Assembly (NCBI RefSeq): GCF_024521635.1
Contig: NW_026250447.1
Location: forward strand, 1 to 64,000
DNA length: 64,000 nucleotides
Origin: Tricharina praecox
Lineage: Eukaryota
Direction: 5' to 3'
In this document: in pieces, positions 30,858-63,769 of the stretch
Position numbering within the stretch: the stretch's first letter is position 1
Layout of the letters: every line of letters begins with the position of its first letter
Translations under genes and position numbers: made by a program
Notes under the pieces: model-generated
The model's input: only the letters and a program-made list of their open reading frames with translations
Told to the model about the DNA's origin: nothing
The model's database searches: none

Positions 30858-33800
30858 TATTTCTCTATTTGCCTATTCCCATCCGCTTTCGGCTCCGACG
30901 ATGGACGGGAACGGACATCATGGGGGGCAGATAACTTTCCTCATGCCCAATTACTAGAGAGCAGAGTACTCTATCTGCCAATAATCCCACCTCTCCATCC
31001 CTTTGTGCACACTCCACTGCACCGCACTGCACTCCACTCCACCGCACTGCACTGCAAAGCACGGCAGCGAGCGAGCGGAAGTGAAGTGAAGTGAAGTGGA
31101 AGTGGAAGTGGGCCCTGACTGCGTGCCTGCAGAACACACACGAATGGAGAGCGTGGTGGAGATGGGATGTGCGAAAGCGTTTTTTCCCCTTCCCTGCGAA
31201 CAGTGGCTATCTCTGTATGTAATGTACCAAGTATGTGTGAAGTATGTACATTGTGTGTGGAGTACGCCGCCCGCTTCTGCAGGTGTGAGTTGTCGTTCCC
31301 GAGAGACGGAGGGAGAGCGGTTTGTGAGGAGTTGGGTTGGGGTGAGTTGGGTTGGGGTAGAGAGAGAGATGGGTAGGGAGTCCGCGAATGGGCGGACGAC
31401 AGCCCTATGCACGGCCTTCGGCCGGGCGCACGGTGGGAGCTATGGAAAAGTACGTGCGCGAGAACGGCGAGAGGGCGGCGGCGCGGGCCATGGACTAACG
31501 GGGTACTTGTTGCTCCTCCAATCTACAACTGCAAAATACTAGCAGCATGCGTCGCTGGCGTGAGGTCCATCTCCGCTCACCAACTGGCCGCCTCGTCGCC
31601 TTCATCCTTCATCTCGTATCGATGGCTACGGCAAAGATTTGCCCGGCTCTACTCTACTGCCGGCAAATCTTCAACCTCTCCCACGCCCCCGGTTTGCTGC
31701 TGATGCTGCTGCTGCTCTCGGCAGATTCCGCCCGCCCTTTGCTCGTGCTCGTGCTCGAGAGAGGCAGAGAGAAACGCCTCCCAAGTTCAATCGGGACTCG
31801 CACCCACCCAGACTGTCGGAACTCGGAATTCGGAGGCGCGCCTTCCTTCCTTCACGCCACTGGATGTTGTGTACTACTACTACTGATAGTACTGATAGTA
31901 CTTGTGGTCAACGTCTCCCTCCAATCTTCAGAGTGGTACATACTGGTGCGTATTTCGGGCGGGGAATCGGACGACGGAGAGCCCCCGCCAGAGTCCAGCG
32001 TGCCTGGCTCCAGAGTCGAGAGTCCAGACGGCTGGCCGGCCGTGGTGAAACGAGACATCGAACACCGCATACCTCCAACGCATAAATTCTCACATGTAGT
32101 GCTATAGTTAGGGTTCCCCCCGTCACTCTCACGAGTCACGACTATCTTCGAATTCACATCGCTACCGAATCCCGAGGCCGTGATGTCTTCGTCAGATGCA
32201 AACCCCTTTAATACGCAGCCGACACGGGCGACCCGGCGACACCATGGCACTGGTACTGGGCACTGGCACTGGGCAAGGCTTTCGATAAATAGTAACTACC
32301 GTAGGTAAGAGGTACCGTATCTCGGAGCGACAGGAGCGACAGGAGCGACAGGCTAGAGTATTTACCACGAATCCGATTTATGCATTCACACACACCCGAA
32401 TTGGCGACACTGCTGCTAGTTACACACGAGTAACTACGGTAGAGTAGACAACTACCTACGTGGAGACACAAACACCACACTGTGTCGCAACTTCTCCATC
32501 TCCTTCCGCCGCTTCCGTCTCCTCTTACCTGTTTGTTTCTGGACTATCCGCCGATCGCGATGGAGCTCGCGTCGCTGGCTGGCTGGCTGGCGGGATACCT
32601 ATGTCGCTGCACGGACTGGTGAGGACGGAATTCGTGGAGACAAGAAACGTGCATACGATTGGTCCGTCCGTCCGCCACGCCACGCGCCCGTGCGGTGAGC
32701 AGGGGGGTTCCGCCACAGGGACATGCATGCATAGGTAGGTTACCTACGCACATCTCAACTCGAACGATGGCTAGAACTCGCAAGTAGCCAGCAGGAGCAG
32801 GAGTAATCGAGCAGGAGTACCTAATCGAGCAGAAGAAAAAGAAAAGATCTCGTCAGCCTCATGCGGCATGCGCCAGTCATCAGTCGGAGTCGGAGTCGGT
32901 TCTGCTTTGTCCCTCGCCGTGGCCGGTCATGCGTAAAGTAGGTACCAACCAACGGGCCGTTGTGCTGCTCTCTCGGAGTCTTGGAGTCTTGGTTTCATGT
33001 GACGGCTTGTTTTTTTATTCAAGACCTTAACAGATCATGGCAGATTATATGACCTTTTCCATCCGGCTGTCCCGGACCACTGACCGGCCGCGAGCTCGAC
33101 ATGTACCGGTTCCCTGTTGCTCTCCGCCCAGCTTTCATGTGACGGCGTGTACAGTGCAGGAATGGTTACTTCCCTCTGTTGGGCCCTTGGCCCGTTGGGT
33201 GCTGCACTGTGCGGTGCATCTGGAGTGTAAGAACTTGCGCACACGCATAAAGCACCGCGACGTATGTATATACCTACTAGTAGTAGGAGATGACCACTGG
33301 TATGTATGTAGATATCCTACGCCAATCGATGACGCATTCTTTTCCAATTTCAAGACACGCGCGGGAGGTGAGTGGGGCGAGTGAGCCGTGATGACCCACC
33401 ACCGTGAACACGTGTACATACAAGTGCGTGTACATACTACATACAAGTGTAAGTACAAGCCCAAGTGCAGTCGATGATTGACAGCTACCGGTATGTAACT
33501 ACCTATGGATCGGAACTTGGGACTTGGAAGTCTCGCAGATATGTAGCGCGGGGGTGCGAGTCATGAGTCTCACATCGCGAGTCGCCATATGGATTCATGG
33601 ATGGCGGTAACCAGTAACCAGTAACCAGTGTGTACATACGGTACGCAGAAAGTACCGGCCGGTATGTATGTACGCCTTGCATGCAGGTAGGTACATAGGT
33701 AGTTACCGTGACCGTGGCCTCCAGTAGTGAGTACATAGATCTGGCCAGCATAACCAACCAATCGTGTAGGTAGTAGGCAAAAGAGGCCGAGGCGCCACTG

Positions 33801-35509
33801 AGGAGGACAGAGGGAATTGAAAGTGCTCCGGGTTCGCTATGTATGTATATCTGGCAGCTGCATCAGCCGCGAATCGCGGACGGGGTCGCATCGAGAATCC
33901 TCCTCAGGGGCGATTTAATCAGCAGGCTGTTCCCGAGCCACAGATCTGCCGTCCCCGAAGCCTGCAACGGCGGACGCAAGTGCCGAAACCGGCCTGATGC
34001 CCCGCGTTGACGCCGTGAGATCGCAGATTGGAGTGAGCCGGCGTCGGTGTCGGTGACAGGGGGCTGCTACTACTAGTGAGTGGCCTGCTAGTTTACGGGC
34101 CGGGGTCGACTCGGCGAGAAACGAAACGCAGAAAAAAACGGCCAGTAGCCGACGGGAGCGGTTACTGGGATCAGTGGGTGGTGTTGACTGTCGAACTGCT
34201 TGATACATATTACCGGTTTTACCTATTGCGCGGTAACTGATAGCTCCACTTGCAAACGCCAGAAGGACAGGCTGGATATGATACCGTAAGCTAGCGGTCG
34301 CCGCGTTACATGGCATTGGCAGATGCCGAGGTTTACTTGCTATACACGGATGCTGAGTGACCGCCTGTGCATCTCGATGCCTGCGGAAGTGCGCAGATGA
34401 TGCCCTTCTCGGTCGGAGTCGGAATGAAACGCGTGAGCCTGACTTCCTGTGTAGTATGGCGGGCATGGGTAGGCGCTTGAGCAGCTACTCACTTGAGTAC
34501 TTACCTGGATATTCACTCTGTGTAGGCCGACCGATCTACTGCTGGTTAATTGCTACCACCGTAAAACGAGCAACTTTGGTTCGCTACTCACCTCCGAGAT
34601 CACCGCCGCGAGTCGATATCTAAGCCATCATACCGGTAGGGAGGTATGACAATACCATGAATCCGGACTCTCGAGTCCCGACTTGATTTGGCCTCGGCAT
34701 TGGGCTCTGTATAATGCGGAGAAGCAGGGCGAGCTTTTCCAGATGGTAGGGATTTGTGTCATTCGAATTATCAAACATTGAGCAACATACACCCACCGCA
34801 CTCTATGCGGGTTTCTCGAGGCGGTTGAAACCTTCAAAGACTCAGCTCAGCGTTAACCGGTGTTTCGAGGATGGTCCTTTGGGGAATTGGCAAGCCCTTA
34901 CGCCTTACGCTACCATTTCGCGACACGCCAACGGGATGCACATATCTAGTATTATTAGATACCAGATCCTGAGATTTTACATAGAACGTTGCCACGCAAC
35001 TTCCGAGTGCAGGGGAAAGATATTATAGTTCAGATCTGCCTACAGAGTCGGCGGATATGTGTCGCACATGAGCTTCTCGCCTTCTAGACTGTAAGCCGGA
35101 TCTGAATTGTATCGTGCGCCGTGCGTCGTGCGACGGCTGCCGAGGTGTCCAAGGCTTAGATCCCTGGATGTATTTTCTTTACGAACTCAAGCCACAGCAC
35201 CCGATGTCCATGTTTGAGAGCCGCGGAGTGTCAACGGTTTTTTTCTCGCCATTTTACACGTCGCCTTTAGCGGCGAAGAGTCGGGATCAAGGGTTCAGTT
35301 CTTGAGCTGAAACAACAGTGGGTTGGTACCGAGCTGTTCCAGGGCGGCGATGCTACATACAGCAATACTCAATGTCCCGTCCAAGTCGCGATCCACACCT
35401 CAGTCCAGAGCATCCAGTCGGAACCATGCGCTCTGTCCCCGGCGGAGTGGCGGCCACGATGGCTGCTGGGTCTACTATAGAGGGTATTTGTTTAATCGTC
35501 CATTACAGC

Positions 35510-36335
35510 GAGAGGTCTTCCTGTTTTATTTCGCATGCAGCCTATCTAGACTATGGCGAACCAACGAACTCCTTTTCCTGCCCGCCCTGGCCAGTCAAGG
35601 TGAAAGCCCTATACTGGCCAGTCCGATGCGGTGCCCCACTTCCCCTACCCATCCGCACCGGGCCGACAGAAGCAAAAAGTAGAAAGTAGATTGACAGTAA
35701 AGACCGGTATGGGCCTGCGTGCCTGCTCCTCCTGCTGCCCCCTCGCCTCTCTCCCCCGTCTTCCGCCTTTCCGCTCCAAGAAGATATCACCACATATCCT
35801 CATCTCCTACTTTCTCGCACCGGCCGCAGACACAGTACCCTGCTGGGAACTCTTGCTCTGCCCCCGATGCGATGCTTGCCTCCTCGTCATCCTCCTCCTC
35901 CAGGTCTGGTGGAGCTTTCCTCCCCACATCCGTCGTTCCTAGACAGTCTACGATCGCCTCGCTGCACCGCTCGTCGGCGAACTCCGCTATCGACCACCTC
36001 TCTTTCCTTCTCTCCGCCTCCTTCCCGACCTTTGCCCACAAGGCTTTCTGTTGACTTCTCCACCGTGAGCAGTTTTTGAATAGTTGCTCGCGGGATTGTT
36101 TGAGAGGCTGCTTGGTATCGTACGGCCGGTTTTTGATTCAGGTTAGTGACCACTGATGCGCCTCTCTCCACTTTCATCACTAATCCGCCTCTTGAGATGT
36201 GCCAGTGAGACCGGAAGGGGCACGTCACACCGGCGTCCATATCCGCCAACTTGCCGGAGCCATTCTACTCCATCGTCGTTTTGGTTCTCGCTGCCCGCTT
36301 GGCTCACCCATCTGTGATCTCATTTCCTTCGATTT
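35510..36335 (-). mobile_element. Degenerate non-LTR retrotransposon (Tad1-like LINE): RNase H end, ORF2 C-terminus and 3' UTR
   Basis: Minus-strand translation across frameshifts gives IEGNEITDG*AKRAA (RNase H GNExxD), GVEWL...SLAHLKRRISDE, KWREAHQW, LT*IKNRP and QSREQLFKNCSRWRSQQKALWAKVGKE...FADERCSEAIVDCLGTTDVGR, with a stop at 35787. The 3' tail is shared with the 17836-17922 insertion. Confidence 0.8.
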
Positions 36336-36660: not shown

Positions 36661-37215
36661 CTACCGCTGGGACAAGCCAGAGCGGACGAGGGTATGGGAA
36701 GTCACATCGGGCGCCGTGACGAAAGTCGGATTTGAGAACGGCATGGAACCAGATTACGTGTATCGCCATGGGCTACGTAGCTAAAAACAGAAAAAGCGTC
36801 TCTTGGGTTTGAAACGTCCGGTACTGTATTTCTGGCTCCACGGGGAAGGCAACGGTATGTACATATAGTATAGATAAGACTCCCGTGGCCATAGATGCGC
36901 TCGTACATATTAGAATCTTTTAGCTGGGCTTCAGTAATAGTATCCGAACTGTCTACTCTGCTGCTTCCAGTTCCTACGGGTGAAGTTCTGTGAGGCTGGG
37001 TATCTGAGTGCAGTGGTCGACTGGCTGTTGCCATGCTTGATTCCCCGAATTGTCTCTCTCCCACAGCAGCAGGATATCGGATTCACAGTCAAGCCTTGGC
37101 AGGGCTACGAATAGCATGAAGGATTCCTACCAGTAGTGGCGATGGCAGTCACGTGGAAAACTATTCTATTAGGCCTCGAGTGGTGTAGGAACGCTAGCGT
37201 CGACTGTACCCTAAG

Positions 37216-37272
37216 TCGTACTCACAATCGCACTCACAATCGTACTCACATGTGACATCCTCAGCTATAAAA
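37216..37272 (+). promoter_or_regulatory. Putative Pol II core promoter: three tandem 12-mers plus a TATA box
   Basis: tcgtactcacaa-tcgcactcacaa-tcgtactcaca (37216-37250), TATAAAA (37266-37272), then a CT-rich tract. Confidence 0.55.
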
Positions 37273-37279
37273 GCCCCAA

Positions 37280-40200
37280 TCGTCTCCCTCCCAACTTTCC
37301 TTTTACTTCTCTCTTCATACTTCTCTCTTCATACTTCACTTCACACTACACCTTTTACTCCCAATACCTGCACTCACAAGTACATCATCCGTCACAAACC
37401 CTTCGGTGGTATAGCCCCCCCCCTCCATACCATCAACCAAACAAAACATTCATCACCCGCATCCCAATACCCCAATCTGAGCTCTCAAGATGGCAACGAG
37501 ATGTCTGTGAGTACAGTTCAACCTCGGATGCATTGTTCCAGGCCGACCGCTTTGGGCCCAGTCCTCATTGTCTGCTAACACAACTTCACCACTGGTGCAG
37601 GCTTCCGCAGCCATGCCGCAGCCATGCCGCATCCCCCCAAGCGCCAATGCGCAAGAACAGGGCCAGCATCTTCTGGTCATGCTGCTGGCGTTTGGAGGAG
37701 AAGAAACTCTCCACTTGCGTCACCACACCAGCATCGTCGAGAACACACTCGGTTCGGTCCGGTGTTAGTCTGGGCATCTGGGAAAATCTTCCCGGAGGTT
37801 GGTCCGAAACTTGGGAATAAGTTCCCAAGTTCATTGAAGATTGCTACACTCTTCGCGCCTCCTGACAGCCGAGCAGATCAGTGTTGGGTTTGGGAAACAG
37901 CAAGTTGCCCAACAATGAACCCTGGCTGGGGGGCCGGGCCGAGCACCGGATGGCCACATTGGCACATCCGCGCTGGTCCTCCACCCCAGCCTTTACCTCC
38001 CAGGTCCAAACGGGACCGAGGAGAGGAAGCTCTGCTCCTGGCAGTCAGAGACTGCCCGCCGACCCGAAGGCAGATTACTGCCTGGGTCTGGTGAAGAGGG
38101 AGGAGGCGGTCTCCTCCAAGCAGTCTGCGACTGCTCACCGATCCAAAGGCAGGTTACTGCCAGGGTCTGGTGAAGCGGCAGGGGAAGCGCCCCATGAGGC
38201 CGGGGCCCAAGAAGCCTGCGAAGCGTGGTCGGATAGAGCCGGTATGTTTCATTCCCCCCTCTCTATCTCTCTTCCCTCAACGGTCTAAACGAGTACTAAT
38301 GTCATACAAGTGGGGGCGCGAGACATTTACACGTTTGTTTCCCGCAAACGTGTGGCGAAATACGAGCACGAATCGTTCGAACAAGATGAGAACATGGAAA
38401 CCCATTATGACGTGGGCTGGCCCACGTTACGAAGGAGCAGGCGATCGGGCTGGGGCCCGAGGACTTGCCGGGGCTGCCTATGGGGCTGTTGCAGCAGCGA
38501 CTGGGAGAGCCCGATGAGGCTGGCGTGCAAGGGGGAGGAGAAGGAGGGCCATATGGGGCCGGAGGAGGGGGGGGGGGGGGGGGCATGGGGCCGGTGCGGA
38601 AGGAGGAGGAGGAGGAGGGCCATATGGGGCCGGTGCACAACACGCAAGACCATCCGATGGGGCCGGCTTCGAGGGAAAGGAAGGATCCATGGATGATGGG
38701 GTCGGTGGCCAAGAAAGAAAAACTCGATTCCTATCGGGCCGCCGCACGAGGAAGCGCCGCCGACGACGACGATAAAAGAAGCAGAGCGGTCGTAGCGGAT
38801 AATTCGAATCGATAATCGGGGCAGACCAATAACCGGCGGCGACGCGCTCCTTAAAGAGTACGCTATGTGGTGTATGCTAAGGGTGGTATGAGGGGATCTA
38901 TGATCCTAACTACGTATCCCGCCCCCAGGCTCTGCTCACGGTAACGACTGGATGATCGTGCCTCTGACTCTGGATTTGACCGACCGGTCCCGTTTGGGCC
39001 GGTCGAGCTCTCCGCCGGGCAGTCTGTGACTGCCCGGCGTTTCCGAACCCCGATGTTGTCTGGGTCTTGTGAAGATGGAGGGAAAGCGTCGCATGGGGCC
39101 GGCGCCCCGTAGCGCCTGCAGATGGATCTGCAGGTCCGGCAGCCGAAAAAACCTGTTGTGCCGATCTAAGGAGCGCCGGATAGGGAGTCCATGAACGAAC
39201 TATGGAACTATCTACGATACAAAAACTTCCCTTCGCGCCGCAGAACATCGACACGACCATATTTCGTCGTCCCTCCGGCCCTGCGAAGAGACCGGTCCGA
39301 CGTTTCGTCGGCTGCTCCGGCAAGTCATTGCCGCTCGACTTTTGCCCCCCGCCGGTCCCGTTAGGACCAGTGAAGCTCCCCTCCTAGCAGTCATAGACTG
39401 CCTACCGTTCCGAGCCCAGACACTGTCTGGGTGTCGAGCGGAAGGGAGGGGAGCGCCCCGTGGGGCTAGCGGATGCCTCCGCGACCCCTATTTATCCTTC
39501 CCCGTGCGTTTGCCCGCAATCGGGAGAGGTTCTTCCCACATCTATTCTAGATGATGGTAAGCCTCGCCGACCTCCCCTATGACCGCTCGTACATATGCTG
39601 ATATGAGATAGGGCACAATTTGGGCTTACTAGTACTGTGGTTGGCCGAGGGGCGAGATATCGCCCCTCGACCTTGTCCCCCGGTCCCGATGGGGCCGGGC
39701 ATGCTCTCCTCCTGGCAGTCTGAGACTGCCTACCGTTCCGAGCCCAGACAATGTCTGGGTCTTGGGCGGAAGGGAGGAGGAGCGTCCAGATTGCGATCGA
39801 AACTCACAGCCCCGGTAATTGCTCAACCGATGGATCAGACGGCAGTTCCACAAACCCCTCCGAACGTGAGCCGTCACATTCCGACCAACAACAATGGATG
39901 GAGTCAGACTCAGTCGCCAATCAAGGAAGCGAGTGTTCATCACACTGCTAGCAACAATAATGGATGTGGTGATACCCCGTCTCCAACCAAGGAAGAGAGT
40001 GTTCATAGCAACAATAATTGCTGGAACCAGGTCTCATCTCCAACCCAGTCCAGCAAGGGCAAGGGCAAGAAGCCGGTGTGGAACTCGGATGGCCCGGGAA
40101 AGCCGGAGCCTAGAGCTCAGAAGCAATACTGGGGTGACGACAACAATGACGAATAGTACGGCACTGTTGAACCGGGACTGAGAGAGAAGCGAAGAAGAAA

Positions 40201-40300: not shown

Positions 40301-41700
40301 TTCTTTTCTCCGAGTGCTACGAGCATTCATGTTAATGCTTTCCCTTCCTTTCCTTTTGAAAACTTGATTTCATTGTTGCGTTTCCTTCATTTGTTGTTTT
40401 CTTCTATCTTGCGAAGTTTATACATATTTGTTTACCTTCGTTGGTGCGGTGTCCAGCCTTTAAAGTATTTGCTACGTGACTGTACCTATGATATTTGTCT
40501 TTATCCTTGCTCTCGATTCGATTTTCTCTCCATAGGCACAAATTGTCTGCCAACAACTTCTGCATAGGTAGTCCAATCGAGTGATATTAGGTGAACAAGT
40601 AGCCAGTACGTACTTTCCGACCGTTCCACCCACGATCACAGGGACGGATGGATTACTCTCATCGGCGATTACGAGGCAATACTCTTCCCAATATGTAGAT
40701 ACATAGTCGGATGTGACGGCCGGAGGCTGGACATGGTGCCACTGACGATCTCCGACGCGTGCGTGCGTGCCATGCCTGCATGTTTTGCTCTCGTGGTCCG
40801 AGCTCCACGTCAAGTGACACGGTTTGGTGGCACCGGAACGTAATGAAAGTCTTCGGGGCCCGTGACCGATAGCTTTCGATACGAAGTTGGGCAGATGAGG
40901 AAACTCCCCGGATTGACTGACAGGTAAGACGGCCCGGACGAGCTGGGGTACCTATACCTACTTACTTAGCTGTGTAGTTGTTTCCGAACGTCAGCTCGTA
41001 ACTATGTACGGCCGGTGACCCGTCCCCCGGGGTGGAGCGGAGATCAGGGCTCTACATAGTCTTGACGAATCATCTGGACGAACGAAAGTCGCACGGATGG
41101 TCTGCTGGTCGGTCGGACTGTCGGACATGGCCATTGGCGATACGATTCTCCTGCAGATGCGCCAAGAAAATGTGAATGCGGGGCAGCCATCAAATCACCG
41201 GAAAGTATAAAGTTAACCCAGACTCCTCGACTCCTTCACGTACGAGACGGACACTCTTCGCGACATCTATTGCGATCGATCAATCAATCAGTCCGAGACG
41301 AAGAATGACAAGGTGAATTGATCTCTTCTCTCTCTATTTGGCTTCATTCTGTGATGGTTTCTTAGTCGCGCACTAAGACTGACTAATGCCCCCCACTGTC
41401 CCTGAGCGAGGAGCTGATCCCTGTCCGTCCCCCCCCCCCCCCCCCGCAATAGTGACTGGGATGGGAATAGCTCAGAAGAGAGCTCCCTAACCACGAAACT
41501 GTCTCGCTCTCCTTCTCATCCTTCTGTGCCTCTCCCCTCCGTGTCTCTTCACTCCCCTCCATCGTCTATCTCCATCTCTCGATTCCTGACTCCAACTCAC
41601 TCACTGTCCGTATCCCAGCTCTTACTGCCACCACGACCACTCTTCCTCGGGCTCGCATTTCCTCCCCAACTCCCAGCCACTCCAGCAAGTAATCGCCAGC

Positions 41701-44700
41701 ATGGGCGGCGGCGGCAAGCCCACCTCGGCGGAGACCGGCTACCCCCAGTTGAACTTCACGCCCAAGGGTGCCCAAATCCGCGATATCTATCAGAGCCGCA
41801 TCCGTAACTTCACCGCTACCGGCCAGTACCAGCATGTCAACCTCCGCTCCATGTTCGTTGCCGACAAGGAGGATGGAAAGGAATTCGTCAAGCTGGAGAC
41901 CTGGGCTGCGTCGGGGCAGGATAGGCCGACTTTCGAGGAGGCTGTGAAGGGTGTGTGCTTTTTTGTGTTTATTATCGATTGCCTAATTGCTATGAGGTGA
42001 TGAGGGAGCTGTGCTAATGAACGTCTTCTTCTTCGAGACAGGTACCTTCAAGCCCACTGGCAAACACGCCAGCTTCGGCCCCTCGTGGTCCACGCACTGG
42101 TTCCGCGTAACGATGACGGTTCCCGAGCGGATGAAGCACCATGAACGCGTACAATTCAACTGGGATAGCAACTCGGAGGGCATGATCTGGACCGAGGATG
42201 GCGACGCCGTGCAGGGACTTACCGGAGGCGGCGAGAGGGTGGAGTGGATCTTCCCACAGCAGTGGAAGGATGATGGAAAGACGCATGTCTTTTACGTCGA
42301 GATGGCCTGCAATGGAATGTTTGGAAATCCGACTGGGGGTATGTGCTTTTTTCTCTGTGTCTTGTGGTGAGTGGCGGAGAAGGAGCTATAGTGGGCTGAT
42401 GCGGATGCGTATAGGTGATACGATCCAGCCGCCGAATCCGAGTAGGACATTCCAGCTCGTTCAGGCCGACATCATTGCCCCGAACCTCGAGGCGGTGGCC
42501 TTGCACATCGACATCTGGATCATCGGAGATGCATCGAGGGAATTCCCTCACGACTCATGGGTAGGCGCTCAAAAATATTTTGGCTATGGAAAATACTAAT
42601 AATTTGCAGGAGGCGCATACCGCTACCCAAGTGTGTAACGAAATCGTCAATACCTTCATACAAGGCGACCAGGAGAGTATCAAGAAGTGCCGGCAAATTG
42701 CGGCGAAATACCTCGGCGACAAGGTCTCTTCGGCAGATGTCTACAAAACTGGGAATACACCGCTGGTGTTTGGAACCGGTCACTGTCACATCGATACGGC
42801 ATGGCTGTGGCCGTTCGATGAGACGAAGCGTATGTTCCTCGGCTACCACTCCAAATGAATAGCGACTGACGGGTTATTACAGGCAAGGTCGCTCGGTCGT
42901 GGGCTTCGCAGTGCAATCTGATGGACATGTATCCGGAACACCGATTTACCTGTTCATCGGCCCAGCAGTACAAGTGGCTCGAGAAGCTTTATCCCAAGAC
43001 TTTCGAACGAGTCCGCGAGAAGGTGCACGAGGGCAAGTTTCAGTACATCGGCGGCAGTTGGGTTGAGCACGACACCAACATGCCGAGCGGAGAGAGCTTA
43101 TCTCGTCAGTTTATTCTCGGCCAGCGATACTTCCAGAGCCGGTTCGGAGCTAGATGTACCACTTTCTGGCTGCCCGACACCTTTGGTTATAGCGCTCAGC
43201 TGCCTCAACTCTGTCGGCTGTCGGGAATGACGAGGTTCTTCACTCAGAAACTATCATGGGTGAGATGGACTTGCATAATCCCCGAATCACTGAATTGAAA
43301 CGGACTGCTGACGGTTTGCTCTCAGAATAATGTCAACACCTTTCCGCACAGCACTTTCAATTGGATCTCGCTTGATGGGAGTCAGGTTCTGTGTCACATG
43401 CCACCAAGTGAGACGTACACCGCCGATGCACACTTTGGCGACGTTAGGCGCTCCATGACCCAGCATAAATCCTTGGATCAGGACAACACATCTCTCCTCG
43501 TCTTTGGGAAAGGTGACGGCGGAGGAGGACCAACTATGGAGCATCTAGAGAAGCTGAGGAGGTGCCGCGGCATTAGCGACACTGTCGGATTACTTCCCCG
43601 CGTCCATATGGGAACTTCGGTCGACGAGTTTTTCGGCAACCTGGAGAAGAAGGAGGCTGCCGGTAATAAGTTCGTCACCTGGTACGGCGAGCTGTACCTA
43701 GAGTTCCACCGCGGAACGTACACCACCCAGTGCAAGAACAAGAAGGGCAACCGCCGGTCGGAGGTCCTGATGAAGGATCTCGAGATGTTGGCTGCCTATG
43801 CCAGTGTTCAGACCGACTATGTGTACCCAAAGCAGGAGATTGATGACATGTGGGAGGACGTCTGCTTGATGCAATTCCACGATTGTCTCCCGGGAAGCTG
43901 CATCGAGATGGTTTATCGCGACACCGATCGGATGTATGCCAACATCTTCAAGCAGGGTGCGCGAATCATCGACGAGGCATCGGAAGCACTTGGGTATCTG
44001 TCGAAGCCGGGGGCTGACACCGTGCCCCGGATCATCAACACCCATCCCTGGCCGCGTACCGAGGTCATCAAAATCCCCAAAGCTGCGGTTGCGAACGGTC
44101 AGTTCTACCAGCAATCGATCGACGGTGGCGACGATACCTACATTCTGGCAAAGGATGTTCCGGGCACTGGAGCTGGTGACATTATCTCCGCCGCCGATGC
44201 TACCTTCTCTTGCGCCACGGCCAGGGAGGAAACGAACGGAATGTTCATTCTCGAGAACGGCACGATCAAGGCTACGATTGTGGGTGGTTCCATCGTCAGT
44301 TTGATCTTCCTTCCGCAGAACCGGGAGGTTATCCCTCAGGGCAAGAAGGCCAATCAGCTAGTCATTTATGACGACAAGCCGATTTACTGGCAGGCATGGG
44401 ATGTCGAAGTCTACCACTTTGAGTGAGTACCCCTTCTCCTCCGTTACGGGGTCAGGACTAACTATGGACGATAGGACTCGTGAAGAGCTTCCCCGCGGCG
44501 ACGTTACGATTCTCGAGGCCGGACCACTTCGTGCGGCGCTGTCGGTCAAGACGAAGATCTCTGCGAAGAGTTGGATTAAGACAACCATCTCTCTGGACGC
44601 CGCTGTCCAAGGCGCCGGTAACATGCTCATGTTCGATTCTGAGATCGAGTGGCAGGAGACGATGAAGTTCTTGAAAGTGGAGTTCCCCGTCGACGTCGTC

Positions 44701-45405
44701 AACACGGAAGCCACCTACGAGACCCAATACGGGGTGCTGAAGCGACCCACCCACTACAACACCACCTGGGACATGGCTCGTTTCGAGGTCTGCTGTCAGA
44801 AGTGGGCCGACCTGTCGGAGCACGGCTTCGGGGTGTCGATCCTCAACGACTGCAAGTACGGCTTCGCCACCGCCGGAAACGTGATGCGGCTCTCCCTCAT
44901 CCGCGCTCCGAAGGCCCCCGACGCCCATGCCGACATGGGACGCCACACCTTCCGCTACGCCATGTACCCGCACAACGACATCGTCGGCGAAGCCACCGTT
45001 CGCACCGCCGCGGACTTCAACAACCCCCTGAAACTCAACCACGTCCTCCGCAGCAACGCCGACCGCGCCCACGACCTGCTCAACGCCGTCGCCGTCACCA
45101 AGCACTCGAGCGTCATCCTGGACACCGTCAAGCGCGGGGAAGACGACGAGGTCATCTCACTCGGCGGCTTGCCGACGCGCAGCGGCAACAGCGTCATCCT
45201 GAGACTGTATGAGAGTCTCGGCGGGAGAGCGAGCACGTCGATTAAGACCAAGCTGCCCGTAAAGAAGGTCTTTAAGACTAATCTCCTCGAGGATGACCTG
45301 GAGGAACTGGAGTTCCAGGAGGTTGAGGTTAATGGTGAGACTACTAAGGAGGTCGAGCTCGTTCTCAGGGCGTTTGAGGTCGTGACTGTTAGGTTGCAGT
45401 TGTAG
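41701..45405 (+). CDS. AMS1: GH38 cytosolic/vacuolar alpha-mannosidase; 7 exons
   Basis: Motifs [82 protein letters not shown] and RLYESLGG. Introns 41951-42041, 42339-42414, 42561-42609, 42830-42882, 43260-43325 and 44423-44474. Confidence 0.96.
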
Positions 45406-46094: not shown

Positions 46095-49000
46095 TCAAAG
46101 ATAAAACATACTCCTCCTGAGATTCTCATGGACCCCGCGACCCACGCCACCCCACCACGACTCCACATACTTCGCGGCCGACTCCTCAGTCCACGTCGGC
46201 AGCGCCGTCGCTGCCTTAATCGACTTATCATTCGTCAGCATAGCGTACATATAGCATCTCGCGCGCTCGCACGCAATATCGGCGTAATACGCAGGCGTGC
46301 AGACACTGACACTCCTATTCGCGCGCGCAAAGTTGTAGCTAAGGTAGTACGTCATCTTCTGCAGGTCGTCGACGTCGAGGCGGTTATCGTCGACGAGGAC
46401 GTAGTAGTGGCAGGGCCGCGCGGTCCCGCGAATCCCCTGGTGCGCTTGCAGGAAAAAGTCGAAGTCGTACGGGTCCGTGATCGCACGGTCCACCACCGTC
46501 CCTGGCGAGGGGTTGCCGTTCCGCGGGTCCATGTGTGTCTTGCTGGACGGGTAGAAACGTGTGTGGTGCCGCTTGCCGACGATGATAAGGGTCAGCCGGA
46601 TCACTGGCGCGTTCGGCCCTTGCAGTTGCCGTGATACGTCCAGGCACGCTTTGCGGATCTGGGGGAGCTCGGTTTTCATCACTGCTGCGTATTGCGACTC
46701 CGATACCCCGTCCCGGTAGAAGAAGATGCGCTTGGGAAGCACGCGTGCTGCCGCGTGGTAGGTGGTGAGGCGCTCACACATCATCTGCTCTAGGTGGGTG
46801 ATCATCTGTGAGGACGAGGTTAGTTGGTAACGTGCGATACGGTGGAAAGGGTATAAATAACTACCTCTTTGCGGCTCTCTTGGGTTCTTATCGAGGCCGG
46901 ATAATTCGTATATTTCGAGTCGTTACTTGCCACGACCGCCGCGATGGAGGGGCAGTGTCGTGCACTCGACGGGCCGGGATGCGTGACATCGGCACCGACA
47001 ATCATGCACTCCTTCGTGCACGCTCCCAATTGGACGTAATGGTTGGTACCGCCGGACTTCAGGTTGAACTTGAGCGCCACATTGGAGGCATACTGCGACC
47101 AGCCCTTGGGATTCTTAATGAACTTGTCTAGCACCGAGCAGACCGTCTGGAAGCCCCAGCGCAGATCGCCGAGCCACTTGATCGCCGCGTACAATGCCAT
47201 GTCGGCCTTTTGAGAGTTTGCGATGACCACGTAGATCAGCGCGATGTTCTTCGCTTTGTCCTTACTGAGCGCCTCGAATTCACGACACAGCGGATTTTCG
47301 GGGTTCTTGTAATCCGTCCAAGTGCGTCCAGACGGAATGGTAATCGGGGTACGTCCATTGTCATAATACGGCAGGTTCGCTCCAACGTTGCGTAGAGCCA
47401 TCATGATCTCGTCTAAGTTCGACTTAAGGTCCTTCGCGTTGAGCTCTCTGTTCCCCAGGTTTAGGACCAGACGCGTCCACACGGGCGCCAAGTTGCCGGC
47501 CGGCGCAGAGAACAGTTTCGTGCCGTGCTTCATGTTCCAGCCGCCGTACACCGGGCGGATCGAGCCCTGCCGGTAAATCACCGACGGTGATTCGAGCACG
47601 CGCATGGGCACGGTAATCATCTCCTTGCCAACGGTGATGCCGAAGCCATCCTACACGCAGTGCAACAATGCAGATGATCAGCAAATCGTGATGACTCGCG
47701 AACCACAGGAATAATTTCGATGATCAAGGAGCACATACGAGAAAACGGTTAGGAACGGTAACGCCGAGATCCGCTAGACCTTCGCTCGTGATTATTTTCG
47801 CGTTTTCAGCGGGTGCCATGCACGCCTGCTTGATCATGGTAGCGGCGAGCCTGGGGTCGAGTCTTCCTCCACCCCTGGGGATCTGCCCGGGAACCACCTC
47901 GAGGAACTCAGGTGGTATCAATAAGGGCATGTTGGCTACCCCCGTGGGGAACAATACACACGGGATAGCCGGAGCCTTCACCTGTGTCCCGTAATCTACA
48001 GATCAATTAGCACCTTGACTCCCGCGTGAGAGCTAATGGAAAGAAGAAGGGCGTGATTTTCGTACGTCTCTGGAATCGGGCCGATATGAGCTCCTGTGTA
48101 TTCAAGTACTTGGTACGTCCGGGATATTGATCGGTAAGCCCATGGACAGTTAAGAGCTGCACCTTCCCACGCGTCTGGTGGTCACTTCGCACATGTAGCC
48201 CCGTGATGAAGGCGATGAGCGCCGGATCCTTCCTCTGGCAAAGCGTTGCAAGCGGAATTGCTGGATTTTGATCTCCCGCCCACCTATCCATCAGACCCAA
48301 TAGATCAAATCTGTGGCTGGTGAATGCGGAAGTGCAGATGTTGACATTCAATGTCAACCCGTGATTCAGGGTTCGGAGGGATGTGAAGAAACCTCGAATA
48401 CAATCGATTCCATTGCTGAGATACATGGCCTTGTTGTCCGACGTGGGGAAGTACTTGTGCTTCCCGATAGTCATCATTGCGATATTGCTGCGCGGAAACT
48501 TTGCCAGGATGATATTCAGTGCTGTGACGCTGTGCTCCAGGTCTCCGATGGACAGGCCAGGAAGCCGTCCGGCAGCATATTCCTTGACTTCGGTAGTGCT
48601 GATCTTTCTTAGTTCATGAAAGCTGAACGTGTACGACTCCACCTTTGTGACGGTTTCATAGTCGACCCTGACATCGAAGGTCAGTTGTTCTTTGCTAACT
48701 ATATGGTCACCAGGAAAGTCCATAGCGGTCTTTTCCGAATATACGCGGAACCTTGGCTCTTTCTCGAATAGCGTAACCAATTGTCGCTTCTTGCGCTTAT
48801 CTCTGACCTCGGGATTGATTTTGATCGCGTAGAGGTAGATTATCGCGTCCCCGATGTCGATGCTGAAGAAGTTTGTGCGGCAGCCGTGCAGACTTCCCGC
48901 CTTGCCGTACGCTGGCCGTCGGACCAGCGGCCGAGCTATTGGGTCCTTGTTTCTTCTCACAAGTTCCTGGTCATCCTTGACCAAGTCGGTGGCTTTGAAT

Positions 49001-50189
49001 ACCAGCGGCCTGTAGAATGTTAGCACGGATATATACGGCAGCCGTGACCCCTATGTACTCACGTGCCGAACGGGACCGGATCCGGTGCTCTCGTAAATCC
49101 ACCTCCCCCGGGGGAAGCACTACTACTCCCACGCCCGCGACTACTTCCCCGGTCGCTACTGAACCCACGGCCGCTTCCCCCCCAGTCATTGCCGCTCCCG
49201 CGACTGCTCCTCCGATCGCCAGGACTCCCTCGAGCGCTTCCCGTACCGCCTGCCCCTGCAGTACCGACTCCGCGGCCGGTACCGGTTCCGCGAGCCGGTG
49301 GTCGCGCCCACCCACTACCTCCTGCAAGCAACGGATAACGACGTTGAATGTAGCTTCGTCGTTTTTCCGAGCTGGTCGGAGCTTCCTCATCATCGTCGGG
49401 GCAATCGCACAATCGTCTAGCAGGAGTGCGAGGAGATGGATTAGCTCGATAAGTGCTGTGTCTTCTCCGGTATGCCTCAGATAATGCTGAGTCCCCGGAG
49501 TGAGAATCGCTCTCTACCGCGTCCCAGTCGGGGTTGGAGGCTCCCTCTTCCGTGTCAGAGTAAGGCTCGGGGTTTATATCTTCTTCGTCTTCGTCCTCCT
49601 CGTCCTCTTCGTCTTCGTCTTCTTCGTCTTCGTCCTCTTCGTCCTCTTCGTCCTCTTCGCCCTCTTCGTCCTCTTCGTCCTCTTCGTCTTCCTCGGAATC
49701 CAGCTTCTCCCTATCCTTTTCAATCTTTTCTTTTCCCGGTTCATCCTCGGAAATTTTATCACTTTCATCCCCGTCGCTTGAGTCTTCATCCTCACTGTCG
49801 TCATCATCCTCGTTCTCACTCGTCTCGCCAGCCTCCTTTTCCCCGTCCCCAACATCGTCCTCATCGTCGTCCTCATTGTCGTCCGTGTCCCCATCTTCCT
49901 CCACTCCAGAAGTGAACTCGGCTTCCGTAATATCGTCATCATCATCCTCCTCCACCACCACCACCGCATTTTCACCTTTGAGAACCTCACTGACATACCC
50001 CGCCATCACCTGGGTCTCATCGCGATCTTGCAAGTTTTTCCTCGCCCTCCGCATCCATGCCGGAGTTCCCGGAGACTGATAAGTGACCTTCTCCTCCTCT
50101 GTTGACGAAGAATCCTCCTCCGCAGGGACAGGCGGCGCCTCCAAATCGTCTCCAATCCGGATGATGTCGTTATCTCGTGGCGAATCCAT
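46095..50189 (-). CDS. Argonaute (N-PAZ-MID-PIWI) with a long acidic plus RG-rich N-terminal extension; 5 exons
   Basis: Motifs RRPAYG...TNFF, GFFTSLR...LNVN, PPEFLEVVPGQ, GGWNM, YAAIK, KFNLKSGGTNH, IVGADVTHP, QESRKE, YRDGVSESQ, KRHHTRFYP, QAHQGIRGTARPCHY and PAYYADIACER (D-E-D-D tetrad). Introns 49062-49010, 48065-47996, 47738-47651 and 46864-46806 preserve frame. First ATG is 50189. Confidence 0.95.
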
Positions 50190-51333
50190 GTGCGAACTGA
50201 TCTGCTCGACGTGTTGCTCGACGTGTGGGGCGAGCGATGAGCGAGCGCACGGTGGGGGCAGGGCGGGGCGCGGCGGTCTAATAGTGGGCAGCGGGATCGG
50301 AGCCAACGTTCTTTATTCGCGGCCACTGCACTGCTACAGCATGATATGGCCACGAGATCCCACAGCACCCACAACGGAGTAGAAGGTAAATTACATTTGG
50401 CCAGAGGACAAAGACTCTGATCGATCGAGAACGGGAGAACGCGAGAACAAAGGCGGTGAAACTGTGTGACGAAAGGAAGACCATGGCGTTGTTCCATGGC
50501 CGCTTGCGCCGCCGCTGGTATGTACCAACCGGCCCGTGATCGTGATCGTGGCCGTGATGTCGGTTCATGTCTTGTTCGATGTGGCGCCGGTCTGTGGCTG
50601 GTGCATAGCAGGGATTATATAATTGTCACGGGTAAGTCGCGTCGAGGTTCTACGCAAGTAGAGGCCGCGTCTACGTGTGGTAGGTCACTGTTGAACAGCC
50701 TCCCGGAATGTCTCTGGAATGATTGTTGATCTCCTTGTACAATTGCAATCGTTATGCCCGGGCCCTCCAGGAATCGACGATGTTGCGACGAGTCCGATAC
50801 GCATGCGGTTCTTGCGATGTTGCATCGTGATGAAGGAGGTGATCTTCGAGGCAAGGCCACCGATAAGAGTGGCGGGGTACGGGCTGGTATGTGGAGACGA
50901 GGGGGGGCGTTCTCCTTCCGTAAGTGCTTTTTCCGGCCCCTCGCATGATGCCCTTCGTCGGCTCGGCTACAGCGGATATGCGCGCTTCTCGCCCCGTAAC
51001 CGGGCCCAGTCCCGACGTGGCCAGGTTTCGATGGTTTCAAGACTGTAGCACCTCTCGTGAAGAAACCCATTCCTCTCGCGAGGAACCTGCACTCCGATGG
51101 AATGATCTTTAATCCGCCCACCATCGCGATCTTTCTAGGCTTCACTGCCAGGGCCCCTCGTCCATAAGAACCGATCGAAGGACCTAATTCCTAATTCCCG
51201 CAACTCCCACATCCCATCCATCCCATCCACGCTGCAAGCTTGCTCCATCCTACATCCCGTTTCGTTTCAACTTTGGCTTCCGGCAAGTCCCCATCACCAG
51301 CAATTTATCTTCGGAGACTCGTATCCACTCAAG

Positions 51334-54515: not shown

Positions 54516-54739
54516 TGGGGTAGTGTGTGGGAGAGGAGGGGGAGGCGGGGGAGGCGCAGTGGCTGGACGTGGTGCGGCGGAAGCGTGCCGTCGAGGAGGC
54601 TGATCAGTGTGGTGGATGGAATAGCGTAGTGGGTATATATACGTACTGAGTTGCGAGAAAGAATACTGTAGCTGTTCACGCAGAGTTTTGAAAACGTTGC
54701 AAATTTGTATCTCTCAGTGAGACGGACGGGTGCATCATG

Positions 54740-54970
54740 TTTATCAACGGTCTCACCATTCTTCCTGTACGGAAAAAACCCCAGCGTGGCCTAGCGGCCA
54801 CGCACCTGGCGGAGTTAGCGTAGACATTGGTCCACCTATCGGGGTTTCCAAGCCACCCACTGGGGGCGGTGAAGGTTTTTGGTTCAAGCCACGGCTCCAT
54901 TTTTTTCTTTTGTTTAACCAGGAAGTGCTTGCGACCTGGGTAGATCATGGCAATATCACGCCACAGTTCG
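54740..54970 (+). repeat. tRNA-related Pol III-type element (SINE-like or small ncRNA), copy 1
   Basis: A-box TGGCCTAGCGG (54787-54797), B-box GGTTCAAGCC (54881-54890), T7 run (54900-54906); colinear with 63770-64000. Confidence 0.7.
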
Positions 54971-59930: not shown

Positions 59931-60614
59931 GGTGGGACTTGTGCGAGAGGCATAATGAGCATACCTACATCCACCTCGCTAGTTGACCTTTTATTTCACA
60001 CGTGCTGCAAAGGCCTCAGCGTCGGGCGCCGTTTACCGCTCGTGTTCCCTCGCAAGACAAGTCGTATACATTCATTCCGCAACAGTGCCGTAGTCAGTAA
60101 ACACGACAATCCTCTCGCCCCCAAGATACCGCAGTACAATGCATGTGCCCACCTGTGACCTATCTGAAATCGCTGCCTGACCAGTGGCCAACCAATCACG
60201 GCAGTGTTTCCCAACCGATTCATGCAGAGAAACTCCAGTGACACCTCTCCGCCGCTTGCCATCCAGTTGCCTTACAACTGTCATCCCTTTCCTGTAACGC
60301 GAGGACATCATGGTGTGTCACTCCAAGAACGAATCATATCTCATGTTCTGGTGGCACCCACGCGCTTCCCGGTAGGATGGTTGGATTAGCTAATAGTCGC
60401 ACCATGTTACACAGTCTCAACCGGCGAGCACCTCGTACCAAAACGTCAAGTCCGGCGTAACATCGCTGATCACGATTGACCGCCATAAAGCGCGAGGCAG
60501 GGGATGAAAGAGGGGTAGGTACCATGCATCTGCTCAGACATATAAACCTTGTTTTCCTCCGGTGCCATACAATGCAGTGACCGACTTCCCACTCCCCACC
60601 ACACACGGTACACT

Positions 60615-63437
60615 ATGAACGCGATCCACCTCTGCGGCCCGTGCAATCTCACCTTCCCCGACCGCCCCACGCTCGCAGCGCACTGCGCTGCGGAACAGCA
60701 TCCGTGCTGCCAATTCTGCAACGCGTACTGTATCGACATTAGGCAGTTATCGCTGCACCGGCAGCTTTTTCACAATGACGTGCTGCACCGGTACTGCACC
60801 CTGTGCCAGCGCGTGTTTAGGGACGCAGAGGCGCTCCAGACCCATGTTAGATGGAGTCCGCGACATCGCTGGCCGCGGCTGCAACACGGCCTTCCCGCGC
60901 GAGTGGTGGTAAACGAGGATCCGACGGAGGAGGAGGATGATGATTATGAGGAGGAAAATTACTGCGCTACGTGCAATTGGGATTTTTTCAACGCTGAAGC
61001 ATTGGGTTCACACCTGTCGAATCATCCGCGACACCGGGTGCCAGACCTTCCGGAGAATGCCATGGACGATGAGCACCCAGAGACCGAAGAAAGCACCAGC
61101 TTTCAGTCTGATGCGGACAATATTGATTTCCAACTTCGGCGGCAGCTGCAACAGCATTTGGAATCCTCATTGACGGATACCTTTCATCAACTCAATCTTA
61201 GGGTGACGACACAGCAAGATGCCTCGTCAAGTGCTATTGCTAGTACAGTGCCAACCTCACCGGTGCCTGTATCCATTACCGGATCGGAATTCCAACCTCA
61301 ATCCCTCCGGGAACTATGCCCATCGATCATCTTCCAGCCCCCTGTTGTTCTTACTCCGGTAGTTGTTCCACCCGAACCCGTTCCGAGCGCCACAGCGACA
61401 CCCATTCGACCAACAGCGCAACAGGCAGCGCCCGTGCAACCTCGCCGCCGTGCAGCCGACTGTATATCATCCCGCACGCAATACTCCTATGCGGCCAATC
61501 CCCAGCACTCGGGACCAGCAATACGCCCTCCCGTTCCTACACAACCAACACAACCACCGTCGCGCCCGTCAATCCCCAATGTCACCACCGAACGCCGCTG
61601 CACCGAGTGCAGCAAAATGTTCAAAAAGCCCCAAGATTTGCAGCAACACCTGACGTCAACCGGGCACACAATGACGGCCGCTGCGAGCACTCTGTCCCGT
61701 ACAGCTCCAGCTCCAGCGCCGACGCGAACGAACGCTGGACCGCACTGCGCGGATTGCAACAGAGATTACCGCACCGAGGAAGCTCTGCAGCAGCACTGGG
61801 ACGCGAAGCATAAGCAGCGCGCGCCGGAGAATGTGAGAGCAGAGAGCAATGCTCCCCCCGCCCCTCCCGCCGCTCCCGATGCCGCTACCACCCATCCTCC
61901 TGCTCCCGTTCCTATCCCCGTTCCAACCGCCGCCATCGGAACGTCACCTAGCCGCCCAATGGAAGAATTCTTCGCCTCGCACGCATTCGTGCTCGATCAC
62001 TCGCGTAACTACGAAGCCGAATTCCTTCGTCTTTGCGAAGCGCGGGGGTGGCCACTCGGCAGTAGGCAGGGAAACTCGGCGCTGCGCGACTTTCGCGCGG
62101 CGCAGGTGCGAGCATTCGGCGGTGCGACGGTGACAGCGGCGACTCAGACGCAGCGGGTGGTTCCCGACGCTGCTGCTCCCGCTCCTACCGCCGCTCCTGC
62201 CGCCGCACCTACCCGCGCACCTGCTGGCGCTGCTGCCCACGCTTCCGCGCCCGCTGCCACTGCCACTCTCGCTCCCAGAACGGCACTCAGCCAGCCAGTC
62301 GAAGAATTCTTCGCCTCCCACGGGATCGTGCTCAATCACGACAGTAACTACAAAGGGGAGTTCCGCCGTCTTTGCGAAGCGCGTGGGTGGCCTCTCGGCG
62401 GCAGCCAAGCGACCGTTGCGAGGCGAGACCTCCGTGCGGCGCAAGTGCGAGCAATCGACAGTGCGACAGTGACAGCGGTGACCCGGGCGCGGCGGGTGGT
62501 TCCCGCCGCCGCCGCTGTTGCCGCCACTCCTGCCCCCGCTGATGCTCGCGCTCCCGCCGCCGCCGCCACCCGCGTAACAGCACTCGGCCGCCCCGTCGAA
62601 GAGTTCTTCGCCACGCACGCCTTCGTGCTCGATCACTCGCGCAACTACGAAGCGGAGTTCCTCCGTCTCTGCCGCGAGCGCGGATGGGATCTCGCCAGCA
62701 GCCAGGCGACCGCGGCTCGGCGCGACTTCCGCGCGGCGCAGGTGCGCGCATTCGGCGGCGCCACGGTGACAGCGGCCGCGAAGACGCGGCGAGTGGCGGT
62801 CGAACACGCAATACGCGGGTTCTTCGGTAGGTTTAGGGACTTCCAGTTTAATCCGCAGGCACACCACCGCAACGAGTTTGAGCGGCTGTGTGTGCTGCGC
62901 GGGTGGAGCCGTGAATACGGTGCGGGACTTGGCGCATACAGGAGGCTGCAGGCAGCGGAGATCGCCGAATTCGAGGTACAGTTCGGAACTGATCCTAATG
63001 AACCTGAGGCTTGGAGACGGCTCTGCGAGACCGCGGGGATCACGCCGATTCCAAGGACGCTGGATGAGAGGCGGCAGGTATGTAGGATTTCGCTATCGAT
63101 CGGATCTTGCTGACTTCAGAATGTAAAGAAAATCCTGGGGTCGCACATCAACCTGGTCGATATGCTGGACGCTCGGCTGCGGAATGGAAGAGCCAGAATC
63201 TACGATACAGAGAAGGAGTTGGCAGACTATACAAACCGAACTGGAAAGTACATCCGCAAGTCACTAGCATACAACAGTGGCCTCTTAATGTATCTGTTGC
63301 GGGAGATACTCGAAGATAGCCATGGCGATGAGGAGCCGGATGAGCATAAGTACTATGGGGCTAGACCTGGCGGTGTGGGAAGCAAGAGGGGCGAGGGAAC
63401 GGTCCGGGTGCATCCACAGAAACGGCGAAATTTGTGA
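60615..63437 (+). CDS. Multi-C2H2 zinc-finger protein with four FF..EF.RLC..RGW repeats and a conserved fungal uncharacterised C-terminal domain; 2 exons
   Basis: Six Cx2C-x12-H-x4/6-H fingers; repeats at ~61959, 62298, 62595 and 62820. C-terminus FGTD..AWRRLC..GITPIP..|HINLVD..ELADYT..TGKY..LLMYLLREI. Intron 63078-63128 (alternative in-frame acceptor 63119). Confidence 0.88.
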
Positions 63438-63769
63438 GATGAGGAAGAGGGATAGAGGACGATAGCTGGTGCCCTAGTGTGTGTATGTACTCATTGCATG
63501 AAGTTTTATGGGTTCCTATCATGATGCCCGCACTATGCGATACGCCCATTGACCGCATGGGGAGGATCTATCACAGTAGTGACGAGTGGCAGAGAGAAGA
63601 TTAAGAACAGCAGGCTCCTTATGAGCCCAACCGTGAGCTGTCTGCCTGCACCTGTCACTGTAGAACGTCATCCGCTTCCTACTACCTATTATGTAGGTAT
63701 GTAGAGGGATGTCGAACCAACCAGCCCTGGGTCGATACGCCCGCCGCGTTGCTGCTGCACCGGCGTGGT

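Follow-up and report, generated by a model that had tools for sequence, protein, structure and literature searches.

A five-copy array of structured modules in a spliced, apparently non-coding RNA of Tricharina praecox: a candidate RNA docking element

Introduction

The roX1 and roX2 RNAs of Drosophila are described as spliced RNAs without a long open reading frame (ORF) that carry a short fixed motif in repeated stem-loops; the two paralogs are alike mainly in this repeated element, which was traced over many species and shown by rescue to be functional (PMC4719309). Chimeric transcripts made from captured gene fragments are reported for Pack-MULE, Helitron and CACTA elements (PMC1947982). 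Multi-stem candidates in the UTRs of fungal transcripts, conserved across species beside a fixed host gene, are presented in two screens (PMC5640933, PMC8216456). Hairpins can also be created and maintained by template switching, which is described as producing loop inversion, stem extension and arm copying, with the patterns reported in RNA genes under selection (PMC8794818); template-switch events are likewise reported for yeast (PMC3820800, PMC8604942).

A stretch of 64,000 nucleotides of Tricharina praecox (contig NW_026250447.1, positions 1 to 64,000, forward strand), here called the window, was analysed. The original prediction, made from the letters of the window, had proposed an array of five covarying three-way-junction RNA modules of ∼80 nt as a candidate new structured RNA family. 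Features of the locus are collected in Table 1.

Table 1. Positions in the window of the transcript features, structured modules and captured gene pieces
Feature	Position	Strand	Remarks
Promoter-like region and CT-rich leader	36880..37450	+	TATA-like box 37266-37273; common to the C8/C55 paralog
First ATG ORF of the spliced RNA	37490..37820	+	78 aa; stops before the modules; no counterpart ORF seen in the paralog
Intron 1 (GT..AG)	37507..37600	+	Joint in runs X2 and X4
Two upstream hairpins	37890-37912 and 37924-37991	+	Included in the larger unit that was duplicated; retained in part in C8 and C31; z -4.5 on the plus strand for 37890-38000
Hairpin B of copy 1	38003..38017	+	5-nt loop is the reverse complement of the copy 3 / C8 loop (loop inversion)
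Module copy 1	38029..38106	+	Invariant hairpin at 38041-38055 beside a closing stem; long arm pairs in register alpha; spanned by RNA contig X2 record 1
Module copy 2	38108..38187	+	Repeats copy 1 in tandem, 79 nt further on; spanned by X2 record 1
Captured chromodomain gene piece (intron 38242-38310 and exon)	38241..38411	+	84% over 171 nt to the intact gene on C17 (PF00385)
Intron 2 (GT..AG)	38242..38310	+	Joint in runs X2 and X5; DNA (soil) run X3 reads through unspliced
Short purine-rich repeats, start ATGGGGCCGG-like (Met-Gly-Pro)	38477..38715	+	Also in C8 and C31; one unit after most modules
Piece resembling a coding-like stretch on C24	38864..38931	+	80% over 69 nt
Hairpin B and module copy 3	38986..39086	+	Invariant hairpin 39019-39033, perfect 12-bp stem; register beta; bridged by X2 record 2
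Upstream hairpin, hairpin B (39354) and module copy 4	39318..39454	+	Invariant hairpin 39387-39401; no bridging RNA among the contigs listed
Intron 3 (GT..AG)	39557..39611	+	Joint in run X2 only
Upstream hairpin, hairpin B (39682) and module copy 5	39646..39783	+	Invariant hairpin 39715-39729; bridged in X2, X4 and X5
Captured 3' end of an apparently intact host gene on C17	39805..40402	+	Last coding part, stop 40156, 3' UTR; 77-79% identity; covered by RNA contigs

Results

Occurrence and predicted fold of the modules

The pattern GCAGTC-N3-GACTGC was found at 38041, 38120, 39019, 39387 and 39715 with the loops originally given. These 5 sites in the 64-kb window compare with a mean of 0.22, and 5 was reached in 0 of 100 shuffles. 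When the isolated ∼80-nt modules were folded, all five copies beat shuffled sequence on the plus strand (z of -4.4, -2.7, -4.5, -7.4 and -7.1 for copies 1 to 5). On the minus strand z ranged from -1.6 to -5.4, and the plus strand scored better in 4 of the 5 copies. Strand preference is weak overall, and the originally proposed excess of G-T mismatches favouring sense folding was not significant (15 G-U against 8 A-C cells, p 0.21; 9 against 7 distinct types).

The three-way junction was the predicted minimum-energy fold of 4 of the 5 isolated copies on the plus strand, the exception being copy 2, in which the closing stem was absent from the predicted fold. In a 135-nt context it was recovered in 2 of the 5, and was robust solely in copies 4 and 5. 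The predicted helices are short and bulged. The tetranucleotide GAAG is present in every copy, as had been stated; in copies 3, 4 and 5 it is partly paired. The ggtcc..gg(a/g)cc hairpin (hairpin B) was confirmed upstream of copies 1, 3, 4 and 5. Folding of the spacers was also borne out, with 8 perfect hairpins against 1.9 expected (a count as high in 1 of 200 shuffles); over the whole 1.9 kb there were 17 against 3.2 expected. Stems of at least 8 bp occurred at 2.27 per kb at the locus and 0.11 per kb in the rest of the window. Several spacers gave a better fold on the minus strand.

HDV-like ribozymes are nested double pseudoknots with a catalytic C. A motif search of both strands of three loci found no hammerhead core, in agreement with the original prediction, and no hairpin ribozyme core. 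One loose twister-like match lay at 39957, outside the modules. An HDV-like descriptor, which lacked the extra base of the fungal variant, matched no module; its one site, at 38301, overlaps an intron and captured exon and reflects the background rate (2 of 12 control strands). Fungal HDV variants are described in PMC5640933.

Transcript and reading frames

The modules were located in exons of a spliced plus-strand RNA represented in runs X2, X4 and X5. These three runs were taken as RNA-derived because their contigs also lack the introns of a neighbouring gene. Among the contigs listed, RNA bridged copies 1, 2, 3 and 5 (4 of 5) and none bridged copy 4; no single contig covering the whole RNA was found among the contigs of the runs searched. 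Contig depth over the locus was far below that over the neighbouring gene in X2 and X4, depth being a measure unfit for ranking genes. A fourth predicted intron (38858-38928) was rejected, as it had no RNA support and sits in the captured coding-like piece.

The longest ATG ORFs of the spliced model encode 225, 156 and 155 aa; none crosses the array and none has outside homologs. No long reading frame was found across the array even with TAG read-through, hard stops being present in every frame. Automated gene models are present for both the window locus and its C8 counterpart, and that of the window omits sequence retained in X2 record 1. A small gene family confined to this genome gives rise to the spliced plus-strand RNA of which the modules are exonic parts, and this RNA is apparently non-coding.

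Paralogs in the genome

The genome (38.4 Mb, 104 contigs) was searched by DNA or pattern alone, so that copy counts are lower bounds. The hairpin pattern gave 8 sites (control 2), comprising the 5 in the window, 1 on C8, 1 on C55 and 1 unrelated site on C83; further pattern searches of the genome added no copy. C8 and C55 are 99% identical over ∼10 kb and were counted once. The copy on C31 is broken: its long arm is gone, and the invariant hairpin is short of two bases.

Matches to the promoter-like region were confined to C8 and C55. Since C8 shares this region and the CT-rich leader, the window locus and C8 are paralogous genes. The module is the best-kept part of the pair (69/77 aligned bases identical, against 176/237 in the promoter and 133/181 in the leader); gene conversion or a later duplication could be an alternative source of this higher identity. 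An LTR retrotransposon origin was rejected, the promoter region not being repeated downstream and no pol-like Pfam match being found among the ORFs scanned. A tRNA-derived SINE was rejected because no tRNA was found in the window locus or C8, and telomerase RNA because a template-like word was found only 5' of the TATA-like box.

A MULE transposase is encoded ∼2.3 kb downstream of the C8 module; the N-terminal piece of the MULE gave no protein match. No enclosing terminal inverted repeats were found in 33-43.5 kb of the window or at C8, and a MULE-bounded element around C8 was not supported. The flanking short repeat is genome-wide and unlinked to other MULE transposase copies. The window also holds an Argonaute gene at about 46.1-49.0 kb, tied to the array by distance alone; among the ORFs listed at the C8 paralog there was no Argonaute. 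The C8 gene is itself rich in perfect hairpins. A second, unrelated hairpin family was seen on C39, with free loops and two-sided changes, part of it within a pseudo-copy of the chromodomain gene that also supplied a piece of the window locus.

Captured gene pieces

The locus is a mosaic with pieces of at least three other genes, all in sense orientation and one including its intron. The original prediction had overlooked this mosaic, as well as the paralogs and the template-switch-like changes. The locus arose at the DNA level by duplication of a ∼110-nt unit (hairpin B, closing stem, invariant hairpin and long arm) and capture of pieces of other genes. A 9-bp hairpin at 38329-38353 within the captured chromodomain piece is missing from both source copies. 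The captured 3' host fragment had no consistent gain of structure.

Constraint and covariation

The six intact copies (five from the window and C8; 65-89% alike) were aligned, with C31 and C55 left out. All 12 hairpin-stem columns were invariant, against 23 of 68 elsewhere, a layout obtained in 16 of 20,000 column shuffles, though shared descent inflates this figure. The short hairpin was paired in 41 of 42 cells and the closing stem, ∼70 nt across, in 51 of 59. When the consensus was mutated at random, with as many changes as observed, the fold was as stable in 0.2-1.5% of 400 simulations for copies 2-5; in the same test copy 1 (7%) and C8 (47%) lay inside the neutral range. Folding therefore beat neutral decay in 4 of the 5 window copies. 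The spacers between copies 3, 4 and 5 have no homology (z 0.2 to 2.3) and are not alignable, though the modules are kept. Exon position, the lack of an explanatory reading frame and a fold kept beyond neutral decay support the modules as an RNA-level candidate.

Covariation, which the original prediction had claimed, did not reach significance among the six sequences, all from one genome. Of the 17 pairs in the closing stem and short hairpin, 2 changed on both sides, which was matched by 62 of 500 shuffles; a second comparison gave 35 of 500. Two-sided changes fell at 4 module positions, with two more positions in the hairpin that precedes copies 4 and 5. The long arm, said to change sequence while keeping its pairing, had no pair-by-pair covariation; it had changed register. 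Register alpha pairs 39 of 42 cells in copies 1, 2 and C8 and fits copies 3-5 poorly (23/42), whereas register beta pairs 21 of 24 cells in copies 3-5 and fits copies 1, 2 and C8 poorly (15/24).

Searches for relatives

Rfam 15 gave 0 matches to the window at the gathering score. With E values up to 10, the 36-41 kb region gave 8 weak matches, none of them anywhere near the gathering score, and the sole one overlapping copy 5 was to a Streptomyces sRNA (E 7.8). A pattern scan of metagenomes returned 17 loci, bacterial-looking by eye; the 12 of 17 that were rescored reached at most 26 bits, against 82-93 for the intact copies. The same kind of search gave 0 matches in viral contigs. The pattern used for metagenomes and viruses was strict and distant relatives would escape it. 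The sole strong protein match was the automated Tricharina praecox model of the same locus; the others were a 148-aa protein with the same sequence as the C8 ORF, and three weak matches to repeat proteins.

With no relative found beyond this genome and no significant covariation, the proposed RNA family was not supported in the comparative sense. No description of the element was found in the literature searched; the supplements of PMC5640933 and PMC8216456 may hold a related motif. Five diverged copies with a retained fold point to an undescribed, species-specific RNA element, which hairpin-perfecting errors of DNA copying could imitate.

Discussion

Proposed selection on the RNA

The explanation tentatively preferred here is that selection on RNA keeps the fold, the modules being multivalent protein-docking sites that act on the fate of their own RNA. 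Each module would offer a single 6-bp helix of fixed sequence, capped by a free 3-nt loop, beside the closing stem and an A-rich linker. The fixed helix may be the docking site for an RNA-binding protein, and the long arm would need only to be helical. Five copies could give avidity, in the manner of the stem-loop repeats of roX RNAs. Since the modules are placed 3' of the first stop codon, the likeliest role would be cis control of the stability, location or translation of the RNA itself. Template switching may have supplied several of the multi-base changes, with selection keeping those that preserved the fold.

Against selection, covariation and the G-U/A-C asymmetry are not significant, and the fold in context is firm only in copies 4 and 5. 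The locus is best described as a species-restricted structured repeat and, with some reserve, as a selected RNA docking element; a scaffold function for the modules is a candidate.

Mutation alone as a possible cause

Mutation alone comes close behind selection as a plausible, if somewhat doubtful, account. The locus would then be a functionless chimeric pseudogene with an inherited promoter, in which short-range template switching perfects inverted repeats, a mechanism described in PMC8794818 and, in yeast, in PMC3820800 and PMC8604942. Several of its expected traces were seen. Copy 1 carries the hairpin B loop inverted relative to copy 3 and C8. Reverse-complementing the 3' side of the beta long arm reproduces 7 of 8 bases of the 5' side in copies 4 and 5, in the new register, as though one arm had served as template for the other. 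The invariant hairpin of copy 3 has grown to a perfect 12 bp, and the 9-bp hairpin of the chromodomain fragment, absent from both sources, was gained outside any module. Perfect hairpins fill the non-homologous spacers and the C8 gene, and the C39 family is unrelated to the array. The loop inversion and the newly perfected hairpins point to template-switch mutation.

Arm-to-arm correction should, however, fix variants as often as it reverts them and would thus predict no invariant 12-base stem, and a closing stem kept 70 nt across would be hard to obtain in this way. Mutation alone would also need a local hot spot, given the density of stems of at least 8 bp at the locus (2.27 against 0.11 per kb), and the captured 3' host fragment, without consistent gain of structure, does not fit it. 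The patterns in PMC8794818 themselves come from RNA genes under selection. Template switching would therefore explain how many of the changes arose and would fail to explain the fixed-sequence helix and the surviving 70-nt closing stem, and it is for this that selection on RNA is favoured.

Other explanations

It is rather unlikely that the ∼110-nt unit stands for a new class of fungal RNA element, a portable module with a single helix of fixed sequence, duplicated between captured pieces and acting in multivalent protein recruitment or in internal initiation at the following start codon.

A stem that never varies, closed by a free loop whose length is constant, also resembles a DNA-binding site, and the fixed hexamer pair with its fixed 3-bp spacer could be a palindromic site for a dimeric DNA-binding protein, for example a transposase encoded for a small, abundant element. 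The end repeats of a MITE-like element, which has 156 genome matches, do use the same hexamer, without spacer, and copies of it adjoin the C31 and C8 loci. The element is, however, common enough for chance neighbourhood; the hairpin pattern itself occurs only 8 times in 38 Mb, 7 in the array family and 1 unrelated (control 2), and the closing stem, long arm and hairpin B would be left unexplained. This explanation was considered improbable.

The original prediction had named a decayed peptide repeat as an alternative, by which the fold would be an accident of GC-rich codons in an ancestral low-complexity Met-Gly-Pro protein. One frame does join copies 2, 3, C8 and C31 to the downstream Met-Gly-Pro repeats and has the top synonymous share (9 of 22 changes), and automated gene models exist at both loci. 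Changes per codon position were nevertheless 8, 5 and 9 in the best frame, with no clear signal of codon-level conservation (33 columns, low power), and stops occur in all frames. Arm lengths of 37, 37, 37, 39, 39 and 38 in the six copies break any frame. The protein matches are the automated models themselves and three weak repeat proteins, the window model skips sequence kept in X2 record 1, and folding exceeds neutral decay. The peptide repeat is already largely refuted and was given very little weight.

A catalytic or processed RNA (a self-cleaving ribozyme, a Dicer/Argonaute precursor, an A-to-I editing substrate or an internal-initiation cassette before the Met-Gly-Pro starts) is suggested by the compact multi-helix fold, by an ATG that follows the module of copies 2, 3, C8 and C31 within ∼10 nt, by the two TAG codons of copy 4 together with the preference of fungal editing for hairpin loops given in PMC9600606, and by the Argonaute gene in the window, and would be highly improbable given that no known catalytic core is present, that RNA is uncut across 4 of 5 copies (partial cleavage would still be compatible), that the helices are short and bulged, that TAG read-through yields no long ORF, that no A-to-G difference was seen within modules among the contigs listed, and that the Met-Gly-Pro ATG repeats are also found without a module.

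Significance

To our knowledge, few structured lncRNA domains have been described in filamentous fungi. The origin of new RNA structures is an open question, for which the locus offers dated steps, all within a single genome: the genes of origin, the paralogs, both registers of the fold and the inverted loop. Should the fold be held by selection, the array would be a young multivalent RNA element whose partner is open to pull-down. If mutation alone is responsible, template switching can yield an RNA family that looks covarying, which would be a caution for comparative RNA discovery. If the module is portable, it would form with the C39 family a set of several young structured lncRNAs born of gene-fragment capture and tuned by template switching, giving a direct view of the birth of structured RNA. 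The reach of these points is limited while the element is known from one species.

Comparison with known systems

Template switching as described in PMC8794818 is a mutation process and not a family; the array shares with it loop inversion, stem extension and shifted-register arm copying. The motifs of the fungal screens (PMC5640933, PMC8216456) resemble the array as multi-stem candidates in fungal transcript UTRs. They differ in being conserved across species beside a fixed host gene, whereas the array is a repeat within one genome.

The array is like Pack-MULE and Helitron cargo in that at least three gene pieces, one with its intron, were captured at the DNA level and spliced into a new RNA. 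Repeated folded modules between the fragments are, as far as we know, not a described feature of Pack-MULE, Helitron or CACTA elements.

The roX RNAs are matched in having a spliced RNA (three introns at this locus) without a long ORF, a short fixed motif in repeated stem-loops, and paralogs alike mainly in the repeated element. The roX elements, as described in PMC4719309, were traced over many species and shown by rescue to be functional, and the array is known from one genome. It further differs from roX in that its unit is a multi-helix module and its backbone is built of captured gene pieces.

The module locus and its neighbours

A run of 16 G separates the longest ATG ORF of the module locus (225 aa) from the Met-Gly-Pro ORF. 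A one- or two-base error in this run would fuse the two ORFs, but the stop at 38815 would persist in the fused frame. RNA contigs stop at the run and none reads its length. The multi-intron gene was read from its ORF and reads like a candidate alpha-mannosidase. Its introns are borne out by RNA contigs; among them is one in the 5' UTR (about 41313-41618), seen in sequencing run X4. A long ORF at window 60546-63113 contains large internal repeats (61850-62800).

The paralogous module regions of contigs C8 (164-174 kb) and C55 (24-34 kb) of the T. praecox genome (G000) are 99% identical across about 10 kb, flanking genes included. This is due to a segmental duplication of recent date or else to redundancy in the assembly.

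Features of the window and of other loci (L-numbers, own coordinates)
Feature	Sequence	Position	Strand	Remarks
Run of 16 G	window	38568-38583		between two ORFs
Multi-intron gene	window	41300-45400	+	
Argonaute gene	window	46095-49050	-	domains Piwi, ArgoL1, ArgoN
Acidic low-complexity ORF	window	49059-50312		upstream of Argonaute gene
Dispersed repeat, about 185 bp	window	8342-8400, 33000-33045, 35507-35563, 54738-54967, 63766-63999		
Dispersed repeat, about 185 bp	L019	2824-2869, 5280-5465		
MITE-like element	L022	5010-5917		
MITE-like element	L100	7245-7885		
MITE-like element	L019	2634-2776		

Other repeats

A second array of hairpin-rich repeats, unrelated to the window modules, was observed on contig C39 at about 1.44-1.51 Mb (L101:3800-6000 and L021:3960-4020). 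The period is about 600 nt, the loops are free and changes are two-sided. One stretch of this kind interrupts a pseudo-copy of the chromodomain gene, the same gene that supplied a captured piece of the window. Another repeated folded unit (L021:5730-6880 and L097), whose end is a splice-donor-like site, is present in several copies across C39 1.31-1.59 Mb.

A further element is MITE-like: it has short inverted ends and contains arrays of GACTGCAGTC-type repeats. A 15-base pattern gave 156 genome matches, and the module gene on C31 is cut short by one copy of the element. A short repeat of about 185 bp, T-rich at one end, is dispersed in abundance, with 326 candidates genome-wide. At L019:2824 a 50-bp piece of it lies between the two copies of a 16-bp direct repeat. 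The dispersed repeat may be either a candidate SINE tail or a candidate MITE end.
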